Source: Chrysemys picta bellii (taxonomy: Eukaryota). From it: a stretch of 64,000 nucleotides of DNA. A program made the position numbers and the translations under genes. Shown piece by piece: positions 28,829 to 53,989 of this stretch. The notes beneath the pieces were generated by a model. That model searched no databases. It was not told where the DNA came from and worked only from the letters and a program-made list of their open reading frames with translations. The stretch is from positions 109,430,001 through 109,494,000 of the forward strand of contig NC_088798.1 of assembly GCF_011386835.1 (NCBI RefSeq), in the 5' to 3' direction. Each line of letters begins with the position of its first letter. Positions within the stretch are counted from its first letter, which is position 1.

Positions 28829-30375
28829 TTTCAAAGTGGTAGCTATGTTAATCTGTATCAGCAAAAAGAACGAGTACTTGTGGCACCTTAGAGACTAACA
28901 AATTTATTTGAGCATAAGCTTTCGTGGGCTAAAACCCACTTCATCAGATGCATGCAGTGGAAACTATAGTAGGAAGATATATATACACAGGACATGAAAA
29001 AATGGGTTTTGCCATTACTAACTATAACGAGAGTAATCAGTTAAGGTGGGATATTATCTGCAGGAGAAAAAAACTTTTGTAGTGATAATCAGGATGGCCC
29101 ATTTCCAACAGTTGACAAGAAATTGTGAGTAACAGTAGGGGAAAAAGAAATTAGCACAGGGAAATACATTTTACTTTGTGTAATGACCCATCCACTCCCA
29201 GTCTTTATTCAAGCCTAATTTAATGGTGTCAAGTTTGCAAATTAATTCCAATTCTGCAGTTTTTCGTTGGCGTCCGTTTTTGAAGTTTTTTTGTTGGAGT
29301 ATTGCGACTTTGAGGTCTGTAATTGAGTGACCAGAGAGGTTGAAGTGTTCTCCGACTGGTTTTTGAATGTTATAATTCTTGATGTCTGATTTGTGTCCAT
29401 TTATTCTTTTGCATAGAGACTGTCCGGTTTGGCCAATGTACATGGCAGAGGGGCATTGCTGGCACATGATGGCATATATCACATTGGTAGATATGCACAT
29501 GAACAAGCCCCTGATGGTGTGGCTGATGTGATTAGGTCCTATGATGGTGTCACTTGAATAGATACGTGGACAGAGTTGGCAATGGACTTTATTGCAAGGA
29601 TAGGTTCCTGGGTTAGTGTTTTTGTTTTGTGGTGTGTGGTTGCTGGTGAGTATTTGCTTCAGGTTGGGGGGCTGTCTGTAAGTGAGGACTGGCCTGTCTC
29701 CCAAGATCTGTGAGAGTGAGGAATTGTCCTTCAGGATAGGTTGTAGATCCTTGATGATGCGCTGGAGAGGTTTTAGTTGGGGGCTCAAGGTGACAGCTAG
29801 TGGCATTCTGTTACTTTCTTTGTTGGGCCTGTCCTGGAGTAGGTGACTTCTGGGTACTCTTCTGGCTCTGTCAATCTGTTTGTTCACTTTAGCAGGCGAG
29901 TATTGTAGTTGTAAGAATGCTTGATAGAGATCCTGTAGGTGTTTGTCTCTGTCTGAGGGGTTGGAGCAAATGCAGTTGTATCTTAGAGCTTGGCTGTAGA
30001 CAATGGATTGTGTGGTGTGATCTGGATGAAAGCTGGAGGCATGTAGGTAAGTATAGCGGTCAGTAGGCTTCCGGTATAGGATGGTGTTTGTGACCATCGC
30101 TTATTAGCACTGTAGTGTCCAGGAAGTGGATCTCTTACGTGGACTGGTCCAGGCTGAGGTTGATGGTGGGATGGAAATTGTTGAAATCATGGTGGAATTC
30201 CTAAAGGGCGGCTTTTCCATGGGTCCAGATGATGATGATGTCATCACTGTAGTGCAAGTAGAGTAGGGGCGTTAGGGGACGAGAGCTAAGGAAGCATTGT
30301 TCTAAGTCAGCCATAAAAATGTTGGCATACTGTGGGGCCATGCGGGTACCCATAGCAGTGCTGCGGACTTGAAGG
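28829..30375 (-). mobile_element. Penelope-like retroelement (RT C-half plus GIY-YIG endonuclease), 5'-truncated
   Basis: TAMGTRMAPQYANIFM and degenerate YSDD RT motifs with stops near 30370-30110; ORF 29171-30097 with VIYAIMC..MYIGQT GIY-YIG; 3' terminus with hammerhead. Confidence 0.93.
28912..28951 (-). ncRNA. Minimal type I hammerhead ribozyme in the Penelope 3' terminus
   Basis: GCAU-CUGAUGA-A-GUGGG(UUUUAG)CCCAC-GAAA-G-CUU/AUGC: full core, 5-bp stem II, 4-bp stem I, palindromic AGCU stem III. Confidence 0.8.
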
Positions 30376-31370: not shown

Positions 31371-32148
31371 CAACAGAGGGTCCTGTGGCACCTTTAAGAC
31401 TAACAGAAGTATTGGAGCATAAGCTTTCATAGGTGAATGCCCACTTCATCAGACGCAAGTAATGGAAATTTCCAGAGGCAGGTATAAATCAGTATGGAGA
31501 TAACTAGGTTAGTTCAATCAGGGAGGGTGAGGTGCTCAGCTAGCAGTTGAGGTGTGAACACCAAGGGAGGAGAAACTGCTTCTGTAGTTGGATAATCATT
31601 CAGTCTTTGTTTAATCCTGATCTGATGGTGTCAAATTTGCAAATGAACTGGAGCTCAGCAGTTTCTGTTTGGAGTCTGGTCCTGAAGTTTTTTTGCTGTA
31701 AGATGGCTACCTTTACATCTGCTATTGTGTGGCCAGGGACGCTGAAGTGTTCTCCTACAGGTTTTTGTATATTGCCATTCCTGATGGCTGACTTGTCCAT
31801 TTATCCTCTTGCGTAGTGACTGTCCAGTTTGGCCAATGTACATAGCAGAGGGGCATTGCTGGCACATGATGCCATATATAACATTGGTGGATGTGCAGGT
31901 GAATGAACCGGTGATATTGTAGCTGATCTGGTTAGGTCCTGTGATGGTGTTGCTGGTGTAGATATGTGGGCAGAGTTGGCATCGAGGTTTGTTGCATGGG
32001 TTGGTTCCTGAGTTAGAGTTGTAATGGTGCGGTGCGTGGTCGCTGGTGAGAATATGCTTAAGGTTGGCGGGTTGTCTGTGGGCGAGGACTGGCCTGCCTC
32101 CCAAGGTCTGTGAAGTGAGGGATCATTGTCCAGGATGGGTTGTAGATC
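31371..32148 (-). mobile_element. Second Penelope-like fragment (GIY-YIG region), different subfamily
   Basis: Frameshifted GIY-YIG (VIYGIMCQQCPSAMYIGQTG); 11-bp TSD AAAGTAAAATA at 31360-31370 and 32149-32159; hammerhead 31417-31456 with G-U wobbles. Confidence 0.9.
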
Positions 32149-32999
32149 AAAGTAAAATAGTGGCATGCCGCTGAAAGGAGCCAAACATCTCTTTAGTTTG
32201 AGAAGTGGAGAGAGATGAAACTTGTTAGCAAAATGCCACTGATACTTTGGGCATCACAGTACATATCAAAACCCTTGATAAACAGCTTGCAAAGAAATTC
32301 TCTTCTAAAAAAGATTTGGGAAAGGCTTTTGTGTTGCTAGACGTCAGATGCTCTTCACCCTTGGAAACATAATTCTCTGGAATTTGGCAGTGGGTTGGGA
32401 ATTAACAGTAGTGCCAGTTATGAGGGTGTGAGGACTTGCATCTTGTATGTGATGTTTCAACATATGAGTCTTCCAGAGAAAGAGCAACTTCCTTAAAGTC
32501 TAATATACAAACCCCCACGATCTTATGCTTACTAGTACTGACCTCTTGAGCAAATATGCTACTAAAACATTGAATTCCACTTCTCACTGCTTTGAGCTGA
32601 GACGCTTTCAGGGATTTTAATCTGCATCTCAAAACTGTAGGGAACAGACTGCCTCACAAAGCAGCTTCAACCTTTTTTATTAAGGTTCTGTATCTTATAT
32701 GAGAAGTTGAAGTGGTATATGGGAGACAAACGTTGAACTTTCTAGATGCTTGTTTTTAATGGGGCTTTTGTGGTTCTTGATATTTTAGTTTTGGAAAGTT
32801 TCTATTATGTAGTGCATTCAGCATTCATGCATTCTGAGCCCTCATGTTAGGTTGCATTGTTCTGCTTGGGAGCCTGTTTGTGACTGCTGGTTTGCTGGGA
32901 TTAGCTTTTTTTTGTTATCTCTTTTATATTTGTCTAAAGGTGTAGTAAGAAGTAAAGCGAATTGAGTAAAAGCACAAGGCCTGTGAATTCAGAGAGAGA

Positions 33000-47488: not shown

Positions 47489-47565
47489 GGCCTGTTGGGA
47501 TGGGGTTACTACTTGATAATGCTTCCATTCCGATTTACCTATTACACATTACTTGATATATTTAG
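47489..47565 (+). CDS. FAF2: FAF2 exon 4 (membrane hairpin)
   Basis: GLLGWGYYLIMLPFRFTYYTLLDIF; AG|GTAAGT. Confidence 0.95.
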
Positions 47566-48758
47566 GTAAGTACTTTTTTGTGCAGGTTGTTTATTGATTG
47601 TAGCAAAGCAAAATCTAACTCCAAGTATGGCTGTGCTGCTTTTGGTGTTAAATCTAATAAGACCATCAGGGTTTGTATTAAGCAAATACTCACACTTCAA
47701 AGTTCTCTGTAGCGTTGTCTGGTTTCTGTGTCTTGGAGACCTAGAACATAGAAGTTAGTAACAAATGAATGTTGTATAGTAGAAAGTAGATTTCAGAGAA
47801 GAATTATCTCCAAGAACTCACGGAGCATGGGTGAGGTCGCAGAGGACTAGAGAAGGGGGAACAAAGAGGACCCAGGGAATTATAGACCAGTCAGCCTAAC
47901 TTCAATACCTGGAAAGATACTGGAACAAATTCTGAAACAATCATTTTGTGAGCACCTAGTGTTGTACTTAAAGTACTGCACAGGATCTTTTCAGGGGGAA
48001 TAAGACAAAACGCCACATTTATTAGTAATACATGTATTCATTAACACTGTATTATATGCATATAATATATTACACTTACACTCACACACACACACACAAA
48101 CACACTCCGTCTTGTTGTTACCAATTAGTTGCTCCCCTTAACTTCACTGGCCAGGTGAGTTAGATGGAGGAGGGGGTGGAGCCGGGCTTCTGCCGATCCG
48201 GATCGATGCTCCCATGTTGACAAGACGAGACCCGGGGTCCTGTGCAAGACACCTCACTTTTATAGCAGCTTTCCTGTTATGCAAATCTATACCAGATTCA
48301 AACTCTGTGTCTGTGTCCATTGGTCCTTTGTGCTGCTTTCTTTTGAGTGTTGTCCCAATGCTGCAAAGAGGGTGTTTCCAAAAGAAGGTGCTTGCTTCTA
48401 ACCCCCGAGGCCGTCGGTATGTCTGCTTGTCTTTAATGAGCCCACTTGACACGTTTTATTGTCCTTGGGTCTGGCTCCCAGCCCCTCTCCAACAGTTGAG
48501 GCTGTCTGGAGGTGCTGCCTTCCATGCCTTCCTCATTCACACCTCATTCATTCAACAGGGCAATTGATTAAGAGTGGGGGGGGGGGAGAGCTCTTGTTCT
48601 ACTGCTAGCAAAAAGAAATTTTTCTTCTATCTTATTCTATCCTTAGGGGCTATAATATTATACCAAGGGCAATGCAAAGTTTCTAAATGAGGCTTTGATA
48701 CAAAGTTCCATGAAAACAGAGGTCACACGTGGGTAGACCCACCACAAGGTTATATGAA

Positions 48759-48957
48759 TCAGAGGGGTAGCCGTGTTAGTCTGAATCTGTAAAAAGCAAC
48801 AGAGGGTCCTGTGGCACCTTTGAGACTAACAGAAGTACTGGGAGCATAAGCTTTCGTGGGTAAGAACCTCACTTCTTCAGATGCAAGAAGTGAGGTTCTT
48901 ACCCACGAAAGCTTATGCTCCCAGTACTTCTGTTAGTCTCAAAGGTGCCACAGGACC
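48759..48957 (-). mobile_element. Penelope fold-back mini-element inside the 3' LTR
   Basis: 74-bp perfect arms 48804-48877 and 48885-48958; TSD CAAGGTTATATGAA at 48745-48758 and 48958-48971; single copy at 52043-52056 in the other LTR. Confidence 0.95.
48844..48884 (-). ncRNA. Minimal hammerhead ribozyme, core intact
   Basis: GCAU-CUGAAGA-A-GUGAGG(UUCUUA)CCCAC-GAAA-G-CUU/AUGC. Confidence 0.7.
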
Positions 48958-50798
48958 CAAGGTTATATGAAGAGGCACAATGTAAAGTCATATGAAAATT
49001 ATCAGAGATTGATCTACATTGTCCCCCTTTTGACCTCTCAAGAACAATTCTTGAGTGGTCACCATATAAATCTTTTGTATTTGTTGCAAACAAACCAAAC
49101 AATTATAACCAGGTGAATATAACTAAAACCATTACAATTGACTAAACACCAGATATAACATAAACACAAATGCAAACAATTATAATTATAATAATTGGAA
49201 ATACAACAAAACCATTACCATTACAATAATTGGGTACATTGACAAACAAAATGAGGCCCAAGTTTGATGCTGCAATAGCCATCAAACAATAAAAGTCACT
49301 GAGGTCAGGACCTTCTTAAGCACACACAACAAATAAGATTTTGTAGGAGTACCACAGTTGTTATCCAAGGTTAAGCTGATTTGGACTTAAACTAACATTC
49401 AGTTGCTAAAATGTTGTAGAATTCCCTATTTTTAACAGTTGTTCTTAGAGGTTTTTGGGGACCTGAAAGATGGGGCCATACAATTATGGGCCAAGGTCTT
49501 ACAGGTTATGGGGGCCCAAGAACTGCCCTTTAGGGCTTGGGGAAGTAGAACCAGAGTGCATAGAGCAAAGTGTGGAATTAATAATAATACAAGCAAATGT
49601 AACTAACAATACAAATGTATTAATAACAAAAATTAACAACAAAATGACTATAAGAGAACCTAACAAAAAATAAACCTGATGCATTGGGGACCAAAGTCTT
49701 TTGGACACAAGGGGTGATTGATAAATTGGATGGACATGGGGGAAGTAGAGAGAGGAAAAGACATTTGCCCTGTCTAGTGTAGTATCCCCTCTTTTTCTAG
49801 ACCCAATGCTAGCACAGGACACCACTAGAGACAGACACAGAACATGCAACACAGAACACTGAACACAGACTTTGTCATGACACTATAACCATGGTATTTT
49901 ATAACTCTTCAGCTGGTACCAGCTCTCCTGATGTTCCGGTTCAGAGCCTGAAAGATAGAAGCTTGGAAACAAATTAGCACAGTGCTTCCACCCTGGCAGA
50001 ACCTGCTTGGTCTCTGCCACAGTGTGTTTGGTACTTGGGGCTGCACAAATGCTGATTAAGTGGTGCATTTTTTGTGAGTGTAAATCCTCCCTTTCTTTTA
50101 GTAAAAGGGGGTTAACACTCCATTTAGAAAAAATAAAATTCTGTTTTAAAATTTCCAGCCATTTTGCCATGGCCTGGAGATTTGAGGCAGAAGCAGGCAC
50201 TGTTGTTAACTGTTTCAATGGCATTTTGGCCCTGGGAGGAGGAATTTACCCAAATATCCCAAATATCCCCCGTCCCAATCTCCAGAGGGGTCCCAAAGGT
50301 CTGCCCCCTTCTGGGGTCTTAAATGTTTTTTCTCCTGATGTTACTGCTGCTGTAAGATTTGAGAGTGCTGTTTTAACTCTCTGTACCCAACCTGTTTTTT
50401 TAGTTTTTTTATTTATTGTTTGCCTGGGCCCGATCCTGCTTTTTTCAATAGACAGTTTCTTTTCATGGGCACAAGCCTTGTTTCACTACCAATTTAGCAA
50501 GGAGGGTGGGCTTTTTAACTAGCCCCCACCCTTCCTGGTTCCGTTTCTTAAACATTTTTTTAAAAATTGTGAAATTACCACAATATTACTTACCAAAACA
50601 AAACAAACAAACATAAACCACACTACACTGCCCAAACTCCTATATCCTTCAGAGTTTGGTTTAACAGAACAAGATCTGCATCTTATGTTTTTAACCCACT
50701 CTGGGCCAGAGGGAGAGATGCTAAGCTTCCCTCTGTATTACTCGGTCTGCTACCACCGAGGGTTCATACACCAATTATACAAATCCTTCCCCGGATTA

Positions 50799-51131
50799 GA
50801 TCCTTCCCCGGATCAGAGTGAAAAACACTAAGTTCTCCTCTTTAGCTCAGTCTTGCTACAGCTGAGGGTGTATGTACCTCTATAACACAATTTAAACCTA
50901 AACTCCTATATCCTTCAGAGTTTGGTTAATCCTTCCCCGGATCAGAGTGAGAAACACTAAGTTCTCCTCTTTAGCTCAGTTATGAACACAATTTAAACCT
51001 AAACTCCTATATCCTTCAGAGTTTGGTTAATCCTTCCCCGGATTAGAGTGAGAAACACTAAGTTTTCCTCTTTAGCTCAGTTATGAACACAATTTAAACC
51101 TAAACTCCTATATCCTTCAGAGTTTGGTTAA
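50799..51131. repeat. 101-bp tandem repeat in the retroelement leader
   Basis: CCTAAACTCCTATATCCTTCAGAGTTTGG at 50897, 50998 and 51099 (period 101); related copy at 50631. Confidence 0.88.
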
Positions 51132-51238
51132 TTAACTGAAAGTTTACGCTCTTTTTTCTATAGTGCCAGGCTTGCTAAAGCTGGCAGTGTGCACACCAGT
51201 TTTATAATAACTGTGGATTTTATGCTTGCTCCCCCTTT

Positions 51239-51252
51239 CGCATTCTCCACCA
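51239..51252 (-). promoter_or_regulatory. Primer-binding site, tRNA-Ala type
   Basis: TGGTGGAGAATGCG 3 nt after the 5' LTR; complementary to the 3' end (CGCAUUCUCCACCA) of vertebrate tRNA-Ala(AGC) as recalled from memory. Confidence 0.75.
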
Positions 51253-51255
51253 AAA

Positions 51256-52103
51256 TGTTGTACTTAAAGTACTGCACAGGATCTTTTCAGGGGGAATAAG
51301 ACAAAACGCCACATTTATTAGTAATACATGTATTCATTAACACTGTATTATATGCATATAATATATTACACTTACACTCACACACACACACACAAACACA
51401 CTCCGTCTTGTTGTTACCAATTAGTTGCTCCCCTTAACTTCACTGGCCAGGTGAGTTAGATGGAGGAGGGGGTGGAGCCGGGCTTCTGCCGATCCGGATC
51501 GATGCTCCCATGTTGACAAGACGAGACCCGGGGTCCTGTGCAAGACACCTCACTTTTATAGCAGCTTTCCTGTTATGCAAATCTATACCAGATTCAAACT
51601 CTGTGTCTGTGTCCATTGGTCCTTTGTGCTGCTTTCTTTTGAGTGTTGTCCCAATGCTGCAAAGAGGGTGTTTCCAAAAGAAGGTGCTTGCTTCTAACCC
51701 CCGAGGCCGTCGGTATGTCTGCTTGTCTTTAATGAGCCCACTTGACACGTTTTATTGTCCTTGGGTCTGGCTCCCAGCCCCTCTCCAACAGTTGAGGCTG
51801 TCTGGAGGTGCTGCCTTCCATGCCTTCCTCATTCACACCTCATTCATTCAACAGGGCAATTGATTAAGAGTGGGGGGGGGGGGGAGAGCTCTTGTTCTAC
51901 TGCTAGCAAAAAGAAATTTTTCTTCTATCTTATTCTATCCTTAGGGGCTATAATATTATACCAAGGGCAATGCAAAGTTTCTAAATGAGGCTTTGATACA
52001 AAGTTCCATGAAAACAGAGGTCACACGTGGGTAGACCCACCACAAGGTTATATGAAGAGGCACAATGTAAAGTCATATGAAAATTATCAGAGATTGATCT
52101 ACA
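51256..52103 (-). repeat. 5' LTR (848 bp)
   Basis: Matches the 3' LTR by eye except a G13 versus G11 run and the absent insertion. Confidence 0.92.
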
Positions 52104-53989
52104 CTAGAGGATAACAGGGTTATAAGGAATAGCCAGCATGCCAAATCACCCTGATTTCTTCCTTTGGCAGGGTTACTGGCTTAGTGGATGGGGGGGAAAC
52201 ATTAAAATCAAGATATATCATAGCTACTAAAGCTTTTGACACAGTCCCACGTGACACTCTCATAAGCAAACTTGGGAAATGTCTCTAGATTAAATTAGTA
52301 TAAGGTGGGTGCACAACTGGTTGAAAGACTGTACTCAGAGTAGTTAACAAGGGTTCGCTATCAAACTAGGAGCGATTACCTAGTTGGATCCCACAGGGGT
52401 CAGTCCTGGATCCAATATTATTCAGTATTTTCATTAATGTTTTGGATAACTGAGTGGGAGAGTATGCTTATAAAATGTGCAGATGACAATATGCTGGGAG
52501 GGGTTTCAGGCACTTAGGAGGACAGGATTAGAGTTGAAAATGACCTTGACAAATTGGAGAATTGGTCTGAATTCAGCAAGATGAAATTCAGGAAAGATAA
52601 GTGCAAAGTACTTTACTTAGGAAGGAAAAATCAAATGCACAACTACAAAATGAGGAATAATGCCTAGATGGTGGTGTTGCTGAAAAGAACCTGGGGTTAT
52701 AGTGGATCACAAGTTGAATATGAGTCAACTGTGTGAGGCAGCTGTGAAAAAAGTTGTCATTCTGGGGTGTATTCACAGAAATGTCATATGGAAGACAAAG
52801 GAGGTAACTGTCCCGCTCTACTCCGCACTGGTGAGGCCTCAGCTGGAGTGCTGTACCCAGTGCTGGGTGCCACACTTTAGGAAAGATGTGGACAAACTGG
52901 AGCTAGTCTAGAGGAGAGCAACAGAAATGATAAAAGGTTTAGAAAACCTGCCCTATGTGGAAAGGTTTAAAAAAACGGCCTGTTTACACTTGAGAAAAGA
53001 AGAGCAAATATGTGAAAGGCTCTTCTAAATAGGACGATGATCAGTTGCTCTCCATGTCCACTGAAGGTAGGACCACAAGTATTGGGCTAAATCTGCAGCA
53101 AGGAAGTTTTAGGTTAGAAACTAGGAAAATCTTTCTAACTCTAAGGGTAGTTAAGCTCTGGAATAGGCGATGGAGATTTTTAAGAACAGGTTGGAAAAAC
53201 TCTTTGTCAGGGATGGCCCAGCCGCTGTGCTGAGGCAGGACGTGATGAACTCTTGAGGTCCCTTCCAGCCCTACGATTTGATTCTATTCCTAGCAGTGTC
53301 TTCTGAATCTGTAAAGGAAACTAATGTATTTAATCCTAACTTGAAATCAGGCTGACACTTGCAGTTCCTAAATATTAAGCAATGGAGACCAAACAAGGAA
53401 TGGGCACACTTCTATCTATTGAGGCAGTGCCCAAAGGTTCCCCTCGGGAACAAGCATGTAGGGTAACACAGTCCCGGCCTCCGAGCTTACAGTCTAAAGA
53501 GCCAAGACACAGACAACAGGCTGTAATTATTTGCTCCCTGGTGTAATCTCCTCTTCCAGCAGCTGCCTAAAATAAACAGTCGTGCGTTAAACCCTCTGTG
53601 CAACAGAACTGCAGTTCTGGAAGAGACTTGGCCTGATCGACTTCCTGTGAATTGCCAGCCAATATAAGACCAGTGAGCCCTTAAATCTGGTATCTTGTCT
53701 CTGGCTGTGGCTTATGCCTGGTGTTTCAGAGGATGTTGAACCTTACACACACACACAATACACCTGGCCTTTATGCAGCGCTGTTCATGGAGGGAGTGCA
53801 GGTGAGGAAATCCATCATAACCTCTGGCAATCAGCTGATGCTTTGGAGCACGGAACTTTACCTGGCTTAGGTTTTTCTCTAGGGTGCTCAAGATGGAGTA
53901 GTCAGTGTGTTAGCTGTAAATGTTGACCAGAAAAAGTTCTTCAGAAAGTCAGTAAGCTGAATTTCCAGTGTCCTTTGCTTTTTGCCTAG

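Follow-up and report, generated by a model that had tools for sequence, protein, structure and literature searches.

The question raised by this locus is how an element that encodes nothing usable came to be inserted so recently that its two ends still match. The locus lies in a 64,000-nt stretch of the genome of the turtle Chrysemys picta bellii (contig NC_088798.1 of assembly GCF_011386835.1, positions 109,430,001 to 109,494,000 of the forward strand; hereafter the window, to which all coordinates refer), where an element bounded by long terminal repeats (LTRs) occupies an intron of FAF2. From its sequence, the element is a recently inserted copy, without genes, of a non-autonomous endogenous retrovirus (ERV) family, termed family A. 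The proteins that package, reverse-transcribe and integrate A likely come in trans from lineage C, an ERV of the same genome with which A shares a 5' leader, a polypurine tract (PPT) and LTR ends.

FAF2 exons 1-5 map to ~27741, ~43814, ~46.6 kb, 47489-47565 and from 53990 on, and the host is therefore FAF2 intron 4 (47566-53989). Within it, the element splits a long interspersed nuclear element (LINE) that is high-copy by contig depth, whose reading frame is continuous across the insertion and its duplication, and which we take to be CR1. A preliminary description of the locus, made by eye, had proposed four layers (FAF2 intron 4, CR1, LTR element and Penelope hairpin), and these were confirmed. 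It had also reported LTRs without substitutions over about 846 bp, differing only as G11 versus G13. Global alignment of 47960-49018 with 51256-52103 bore this out, with 846 columns aligned and no substitution; the differences are a 2-nt indel in the G run (G11/G13) and a 213-nt insertion in the left LTR. Both LTRs have TG..CA termini, and the proposed CTAG target-site duplication (TSD) flanks the element at 47956-47959 and 52104-52107. The element lies on the minus strand, antisense to FAF2, with the right repeat as the 5' LTR and the left repeat as the 3' LTR. The features of the locus are as follows.

47489..47565, plus strand: FAF2 exon 4 (exon mapping)
47566..53989, plus strand: FAF2 intron 4, host of the nest (GT at 47566, AG at 53988-53989)
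47810..47959, plus strand: presumed CR1 LINE fragment to the left of the insertion (approximate start; reads in one frame with the right part)
47956..47959, unstranded: left copy of the TSD CTAG (LTR alignment)
47960..49018, minus strand: family A 3' LTR, with a Penelope-type insert in its unique 3' region (U3) (LTR alignment)
49019..49035, minus strand: PPT, identical to that of lineage C (sequence comparison)
49079..49319, minus strand: internal segment common to non-autonomous family B, ~90%
49415..50181, minus strand: internal segment common to family B, 90-95%
50018..50206, minus strand: decayed gag (capsid) scrap, no usable frame (tblastn)
50387..50800, minus strand: leader end and gag start common to family B, 83-86%
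50691..51253, minus strand: 5' leader common to lineage C, 94-96%; likely packaging region
50884-51132: 101-nt tandem repeat within the leader
51239..51252, minus strand: primer-binding site (PBS) for tRNA-Ala(AGC) (sequence comparison)
51256..52103, minus strand: family A 5' LTR, 848 nt, with TATAAAA at 51561-51555 and AATAAA at 51319-51314
52104..52107, unstranded: right copy of the TSD CTAG (LTR alignment)
52104..53290, plus strand: presumed CR1 LINE fragment right of the insertion (end approximate)

The PBS, PPT, TATA and polyadenylation signals that had been described as intact were all located. On the minus strand, the 5' LTR is followed by TTT and then by the PBS TGGTGGAGAATGCG, which agrees with the 3' end of this genome's tRNA-Ala(AGC) genes (14/18 nt in the FAF2 copy); the PPT AAAAGGGGGACAA directly precedes the 3' LTR, and TATAAAA and AATAAA lie at LTR positions 543 and 785. 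A longer form of the PBS, seen in three other copies or related elements, has 14 genomic matches, of which 12 were examined and 6 are tRNA-Ala genes by ARAGORN; the tRNA-gene search used the shorter end pattern, genomic tRNA genes being without CCA and the long pattern giving no match. On this agreement, the primer is tRNA-Ala(AGC). The element has no usable coding frame for gag, pol or env, and its own frames gave no Pfam match. The earlier remark that no pol is recognizable stands, but the interior is not wholly anonymous, as it holds the capsid scrap at 50018-50206 (tblastn, 46% over 63 aa, E 1.5e-11). Similarly, CpGs are retained in that the two LTRs have not diverged, but not in the wider sense, the CpG observed/expected ratio being 0.31 in the LTR versus 0.22 in the CR1 flank.

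LTR identity alone would also arise if the two repeats were an assembly duplication, an artefact for which the preliminary description had allowed. This explanation has a negligible probability: it is excluded by the TSD, the continuous CR1 frame, the correct placement of PBS and PPT, the differences between the LTRs (G run and insert) and the evidence of a family with 152 independent junctions. When contigs of sequencing runs were placed on the locus, the unique flank was uncovered in 4 of 4 runs and none of the pieces listed spanned the junction; this bears neither on the assembly nor on the earlier suggestion that the insertion may be polymorphic.

A genome-wide search for relatives of the LTR, which had been suggested as a check, found at least 152 copies. 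The exact LTR-PBS junction of family A occurs 152 times and PPT-LTR junctions 190 times, the latter counting A, C and mosaics together, while a first look with the LTR gave 1648 candidates (top 40 at 98-100%), which is not a copy number. Sixty-five A-LTR copies were read: 40 in list order, 10 best interior matches, 3 with the longer PBS and 12 A-type copies among 20 PPT junctions selected because the standard PBS junction was missing. These 65, out of at least 152, all lack a pol of their own; two contain nested ERVs of unrelated origin. Most interiors measure 1.8-2.3 kb. A search for A LTRs joined to a different PBS type gave only 3' ends and solo LTRs among the sequences listed. LTR pairs were scorable in 35 of 51 A copies tried, with identical LTRs in 11/35, two or fewer differences in 15/35, a median divergence of 0.47% and a 4-bp TSD in 26/35. 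In the list-order subset, 8 of 26 scored copies have identical LTRs, two of these 8 lying in tandem arrays. Arrays of LTR-sharing A copies were observed at C6:105.41-105.43 Mb (L056) and at L033, with five PBS junctions ~3 kb apart; A insertion sites are GC-rich (30 copies, flanks of L021-L060: median 0.55 across 200 nt), and many copies lie near contig ends or on small chromosomes.

The description of the FAF2 copy as very young holds insofar as 0/846 sites differ, but the resulting bound on its age is loose. The 95% bound on divergence is 0.35%, equivalent to 0.9 million years (My) at 2e-9 or 1.8 My at 1e-9 (assumed rates) and, with the crocodilian rate given in the available part of PMC4299795, to 4.5 My. 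A slow reptile rate thus leaves room for an older insertion, its LTRs homogenized by gene conversion, in a dead and possibly already catalogued turtle LTR family. The LTR end (unique 5' region, U5) of A is abundant in a sequencing run of a second organism, and the family is therefore not confined to one species; Repbase Reports also contains painted-turtle LTR families (ref. 27 of PMC4299795, as excerpted). No account of family A was among the papers listed by literature searches, though Repbase or Dfam may hold it. An older insertion is nonetheless improbable, since identical LTRs occur in 11/35 copies with different flanks, the closest relative of the FAF2-intron copy is 99.4% identical in the LTR and 98.6% in the interior, and under gene conversion the insert, unique to one LTR, would tend to be lost or to appear in both.

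The proposal that the element was mobilized in trans by a helper is supported by the finding of a specific candidate in the same genome. Lineage C is a gag-pol-env ERV with 22 exact junctions, all of which were read. Over internal positions 3-565, a stretch that contains the 101-nt repeat, its leader is 93.8-96.4% identical to that of A in 5/5 aligned copies, and two leader segments compared across 19/19 C copies gave medians of 96.3% and 93.3%, against 97.5% for A and other A copies. The leader of family B and its pol-bearing relatives reaches 82% over half the length, and that of a further lineage, D, gave no match to A. C and A have the same PBS, and neither the PPT-LTR junction nor the six terminal bases of the LTR differ between them; other young pol-bearing lineages have different PBS and PPT sequences. 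Eight clean C LTR pairs differ at 0/865, 0/826, 1/877, 1/747, 2/858, 2/860, 8/860 and 11/875 positions; C insertions are of the same age range as those of A. A 4-bp TSD was found in 5 of 7 C copies with both ends seen.

Two of the 22 C junctions (L151/L152, on contigs C1597 and C1649) belong to one provirus with a C 5' LTR and an A 3' LTR. Its leader is of C type to internal position 127 and of A type from 499, and is followed by an A interior and an A 3' LTR complete to the last base. A single CTTC duplication flanks the provirus, in phase with a 227-bp satellite whose empty-site context occurs 11 times nearby. The simplest reading of this arrangement is one integration of a complementary DNA (cDNA) that had one end from C and the other from A, though two insertions recombining at the same satellite position, or a misassembly, may also have produced it.

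The shared leader, PPT and ends, together with the chimera, suggest that C particles package A RNA. RNA from the A 5' LTR would enter C particles via the shared leader; tRNA-Ala, at the PBS common to both, and the common PPT would serve as primers; and the C integrase would read the shared TGTAGA...ACAACA ends and insert A with a 4-bp duplication. The FAF2 copy inserted antisense into a CR1 already present in intron 4, and the Penelope-type end fragment followed, in the 3' LTR only.

Several observations weigh against C as the helper. An unbroken gag-pro-pol was seen at none of the 22 C junction loci read, owing to stops, frameshifts, deletions or contig ends, and a recurrent deletion in the reverse transcriptase (RT) region is common to 6 copies; gag frames of ~600 aa are open in seven copies and a 668-aa env frame in three. 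With no intact copy seen, one has to assume that copies complemented each other or that the source is unassembled or exogenous. The U3 regions of A and C are unrelated, the chimera is a single event on two small unplaced contigs for which post-integration recombination is possible, and the A copies read are 65 of at least 152.

The same incomplete reading of A, with no C copy read unbroken, gives some weight to a different helper, whether an unsampled or unassembled autonomous element with A LTRs or pol-bearing relatives of B or D. Family B is young and RT-deleted and is common to A at internal positions 456-869, 1075-1841 and 1937-2177 (83-95%), and B-type pol-bearing copies have the same tRNA-Ala PBS as A; the D LTR is 77% like that of A, with the same PPT region. 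We consider such a helper unlikely. Among the 20 PPT junctions chosen in this way there was no element combining A LTRs with pol, the B-type pol copies carry stops and match only ~78 nt of the leader at ~81%, and the single D copy is old, with LTRs 90.6% identical. Lineage C is thus preferred, and A, which retains every cis signal, is by these comparisons a mosaic of an old D-like LTR type, a C leader and internal scraps common to the pol-less B. Family B itself (L091-L104) has ~1040-bp LTRs, mostly 98.7-100% identical, a tRNA-Ala-type PBS and an RNase H-integrase scrap, and is likely another passenger. Additional mosaics were seen at L174, L177 and L179, and B-type proviruses at L068 and L074 have interiors inverted relative to the LTR and PBS.

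The pol of lineage C consists of RT, tether, RNase H, a second RNase H and integrase, and its gag and pro-pol form one frame with an amber TAG between them. Its gag has no CCHC zinc finger but gave weak coiled-coil-type Pfam matches at residues ~105-215, and its protease, RT and integrase tail carry the motifs LIDTGA, YVDD and WVGPY (WxGP), respectively. In three RT trees, C fell outside class I, the ERV-L clade and a fish clade, P0077/P0080/P0084 (100/100), presumed to be Lokiretroviruses in trees that contained no labelled Loki sequence; supports for its place outside the class I clade were 98/99 and 96.6/88 in two trees. FastTree joined C with the pol of Ovex1 (P0009, identified by three motifs from the excerpted text of PMC2717909) at 0.995, and IQ-TREE placed both in a weakly supported grade, with ultrafast bootstrap values of 39-55. 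Whole-pol scores were 638 bits for Ovex1 versus 391 for gamma-like and 284-304 for ERV-L-like sequences, and 'NYNRIN-like' automatic names occur among the matches. By these sequence criteria, C is best placed in an unclassified, little-studied Ovex1/SnRV-like grade, as a distant relation of Ovex1, a gene of the bird ovary.

Other assignments were tried and rejected. An ERV4 identity was discarded as the TSD is 4 bp rather than 5 bp (A 26/35, C 5/7) and a GPY motif follows the integrase, and a Lokiretrovirus label was also set aside; the RT stays outside the presumed Loki fish clade in three trees without labelled Loki sequences, and the env fold and dual RNase H fit. The bird pol clade nearest to C was considered as Ovex1, but it keeps YVDD and lacks the Ovex1 motifs. 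A P0012 cluster of bird genomes, beside or fused with SCARA3 models, is a conserved pol-like protein with YVDD that is sister to C (81/97), is not Ovex1 and may be a second domesticated gene of the Ovex1/SnRV-like grade. Loci L131-L136 hold other young ERV lineages of the turtle, with long pol frames, other primer sites and some identical LTRs.

Relatives of Ovex1 (CrocERV37-39) in crocodilians were left unclassified by the survey that reported them, as far as its available text goes (PMC4299795), and invading ERVs are known from turtles (PMC10435555, consulted in part). One of these, Cmyd.ERVi.2 of the green sea turtle, looks by eye to be of the same broad grade as C in the accessible material of that study, which lowers the novelty of a turtle carrying an active member of the grade. 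The 12 of 14 supplementary files of PMC10435555 that were searched (files 13-14 excluded), where the alignment is trimmed, did not contain a 10-residue motif from the C RT.

The env frame of C encodes a signal peptide, an RQRR site, a hydrophobic peptide and a second subunit of ~440 aa; a CKS-17-like motif was not found by eye. Its phmmer match to chicken LOC422926 (P0129), which is Ovex1 ORF3, has an E value of 4.1e-21; aligned, the two agree at 20% over 507 columns, and the ~500-aa alignment spans the RxRR cleavage site and the hydrophobic fusion peptide that follows. HMMER returned 79 env relatives, including those of softshell and box turtles, frogs, bichir and birds; a word-indexed search found none, and a sequence search of the PDB and a comparison with Pfam PF00523 gave no match. 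A predicted model of the turtle C env, to which the fold modelling was confined (predicted local distance difference test score, pLDDT, 64; 49-row alignment), matches paramyxovirus and pneumovirus F proteins (Foldseek E value 1e-9; in a separate comparison, Z 10.1, root-mean-square deviation 6.5, 263 aligned), and the C env is accordingly predicted to fold like paramyxovirus F. The model also matches the Env of foamy virus and walleye virus; an F-type fold is therefore not unique to Loki. Ovex1 ORF3 was published as a doubtful envelope, its nature left open in the available text (PMC2717909).

A broader scenario may be drawn from these observations, though we hold it tentatively and as somewhat less than an even prospect. 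A virus of the Ovex1/SnRV grade with an F-type Env would have replicated in this turtle lineage up to the very recent past and would have driven a gene-less mosaic swarm (A, B and recombinants) that captured its leader. The chimera would record that cDNAs of helper and parasite met before they integrated, and the ORF3 of chicken Ovex1 would be a domesticated F-type fusogen that kept its cleavage site and fusion peptide.

The innermost layer of the nest comprises three features.

48759..48957, unstranded: Penelope-type inverted end fragment, 199 nt (arms 48804-48877 and 48885-48958)
48745..48758, unstranded: 14-nt duplication of the insert, second copy at 48958-48971
about 48846-48880, minus strand: minimal hammerhead core

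The arms are 74 nt long and 100% complementary, and the hammerhead core is predicted to be locked in the hairpin; Rfam gave only hairpin-driven microRNA matches to the insert, below threshold. The insert is similar to GIY-YIG elements of the window at their 3' ends (79.5% over 127 nt and 85.6% over 97 nt), the open reading frame of a window element scoring as GIY-YIG at E 2.5e-4 and 21.7 bits against a cut-off of 22.6, and copies elsewhere in the genome are 97-100% identical. Present in one LTR only, the insert is younger than the provirus. Compared with the family, the four-layer nest does not stand out: Penelope-type inserts occur in 9 of 50 A copies, three of them paralogues of one event. 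A Penelope preference for A LTRs was rejected at 5.4 inserts/100 kb inside the elements versus 10.1 in the flanks, and the nest is therefore ordinary and expected by chance. At L181, a 326-nt Penelope-type inverted insert is present in both LTRs with 1 difference, and so must have passed through LTR reverse transcription, with A moving while Penelope was active.

Independent Penelope-type inserts of 132 and 112 nt lie at the LTR TATA box in L012 and L054, with 12-13-nt duplications, and possibly mark an endonuclease hot spot. Two truncated GIY-YIG Penelope-type elements lie in FAF2 intron 1 (29174-30100 and 31658-32253, minus strand), with further end fragments at ~10.3, 36.1 and 42.2 kb of the window. 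The insert resembles Penelope-like elements with inverted ends and minimal hammerheads described in the accessible text of PMC4209133, and with its long TSD is an ordinary young copy.

Turtle genomes have a reputation for being slow, and their retroviruses are known largely from RT-based catalogues, in which gene-less families such as A do not appear. Family A is a real, young family with an identified probable helper, and its significance is carried by lineage C and the link to Ovex1 rather than by the FAF2 nest, which is itself unremarkable and places a predicted 74-bp RNA duplex in the intron. A young helper-parasite system would be a non-mammalian counterpart to VL30, and its insertions could serve as markers in population studies. 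Lineage C would offer recent LTR-flanked relatives of Ovex1, whose ORF3 (PMC2717909, in the part available) becomes testable as an F-type fusion protein.

Among known systems, C shares with Ovex1, SpeV and CrocERV37-39 the amber-split gag/pro-pol and a coiled-coil gag without a zinc finger (PMC2717909 and PMC4299795, as excerpted), and with Ovex1 the LIDTGA protease, the integrase tail and an env homologous to ORF3 (PMC2717909, same excerpt). Ovex1, however, is single-copy, LTR-less, catalytically dead and more than 100 My old, whereas C has LTRs, a PBS, YVDD and recent copies. Like Lokiretroviruses, C has a dual RNase H and an env with a signal peptide, RxxR, fusion peptide, coiled coil and paramyxovirus-F-like fold, but its RT lies outside their presumed clade, and turtle Loki elements are highly degraded according to the portion of PMC7947760 consulted. 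With ERV4 of crocodilians and turtles, C shares a non-class I/II position, an env and the absence of a gag zinc finger (PMC4299795, available sections), but differs in its 4-bp rather than 5-bp TSD and its GPY motif. The closest parallel for A is mouse VL30, which in the available text of PMC4859993 likewise lacks a coding frame, retains decayed scraps of gag, numbers hundreds of copies with near-identical LTRs, PBS, PPT and TSD, and has a helper with other LTRs. The likely helper of A is not a gammaretrovirus, the primer of A is tRNA-Ala and its packaging is presumed, with no descent in sequence implied; by analogy, A would appear to work like mouse VL30 but is not VL30.

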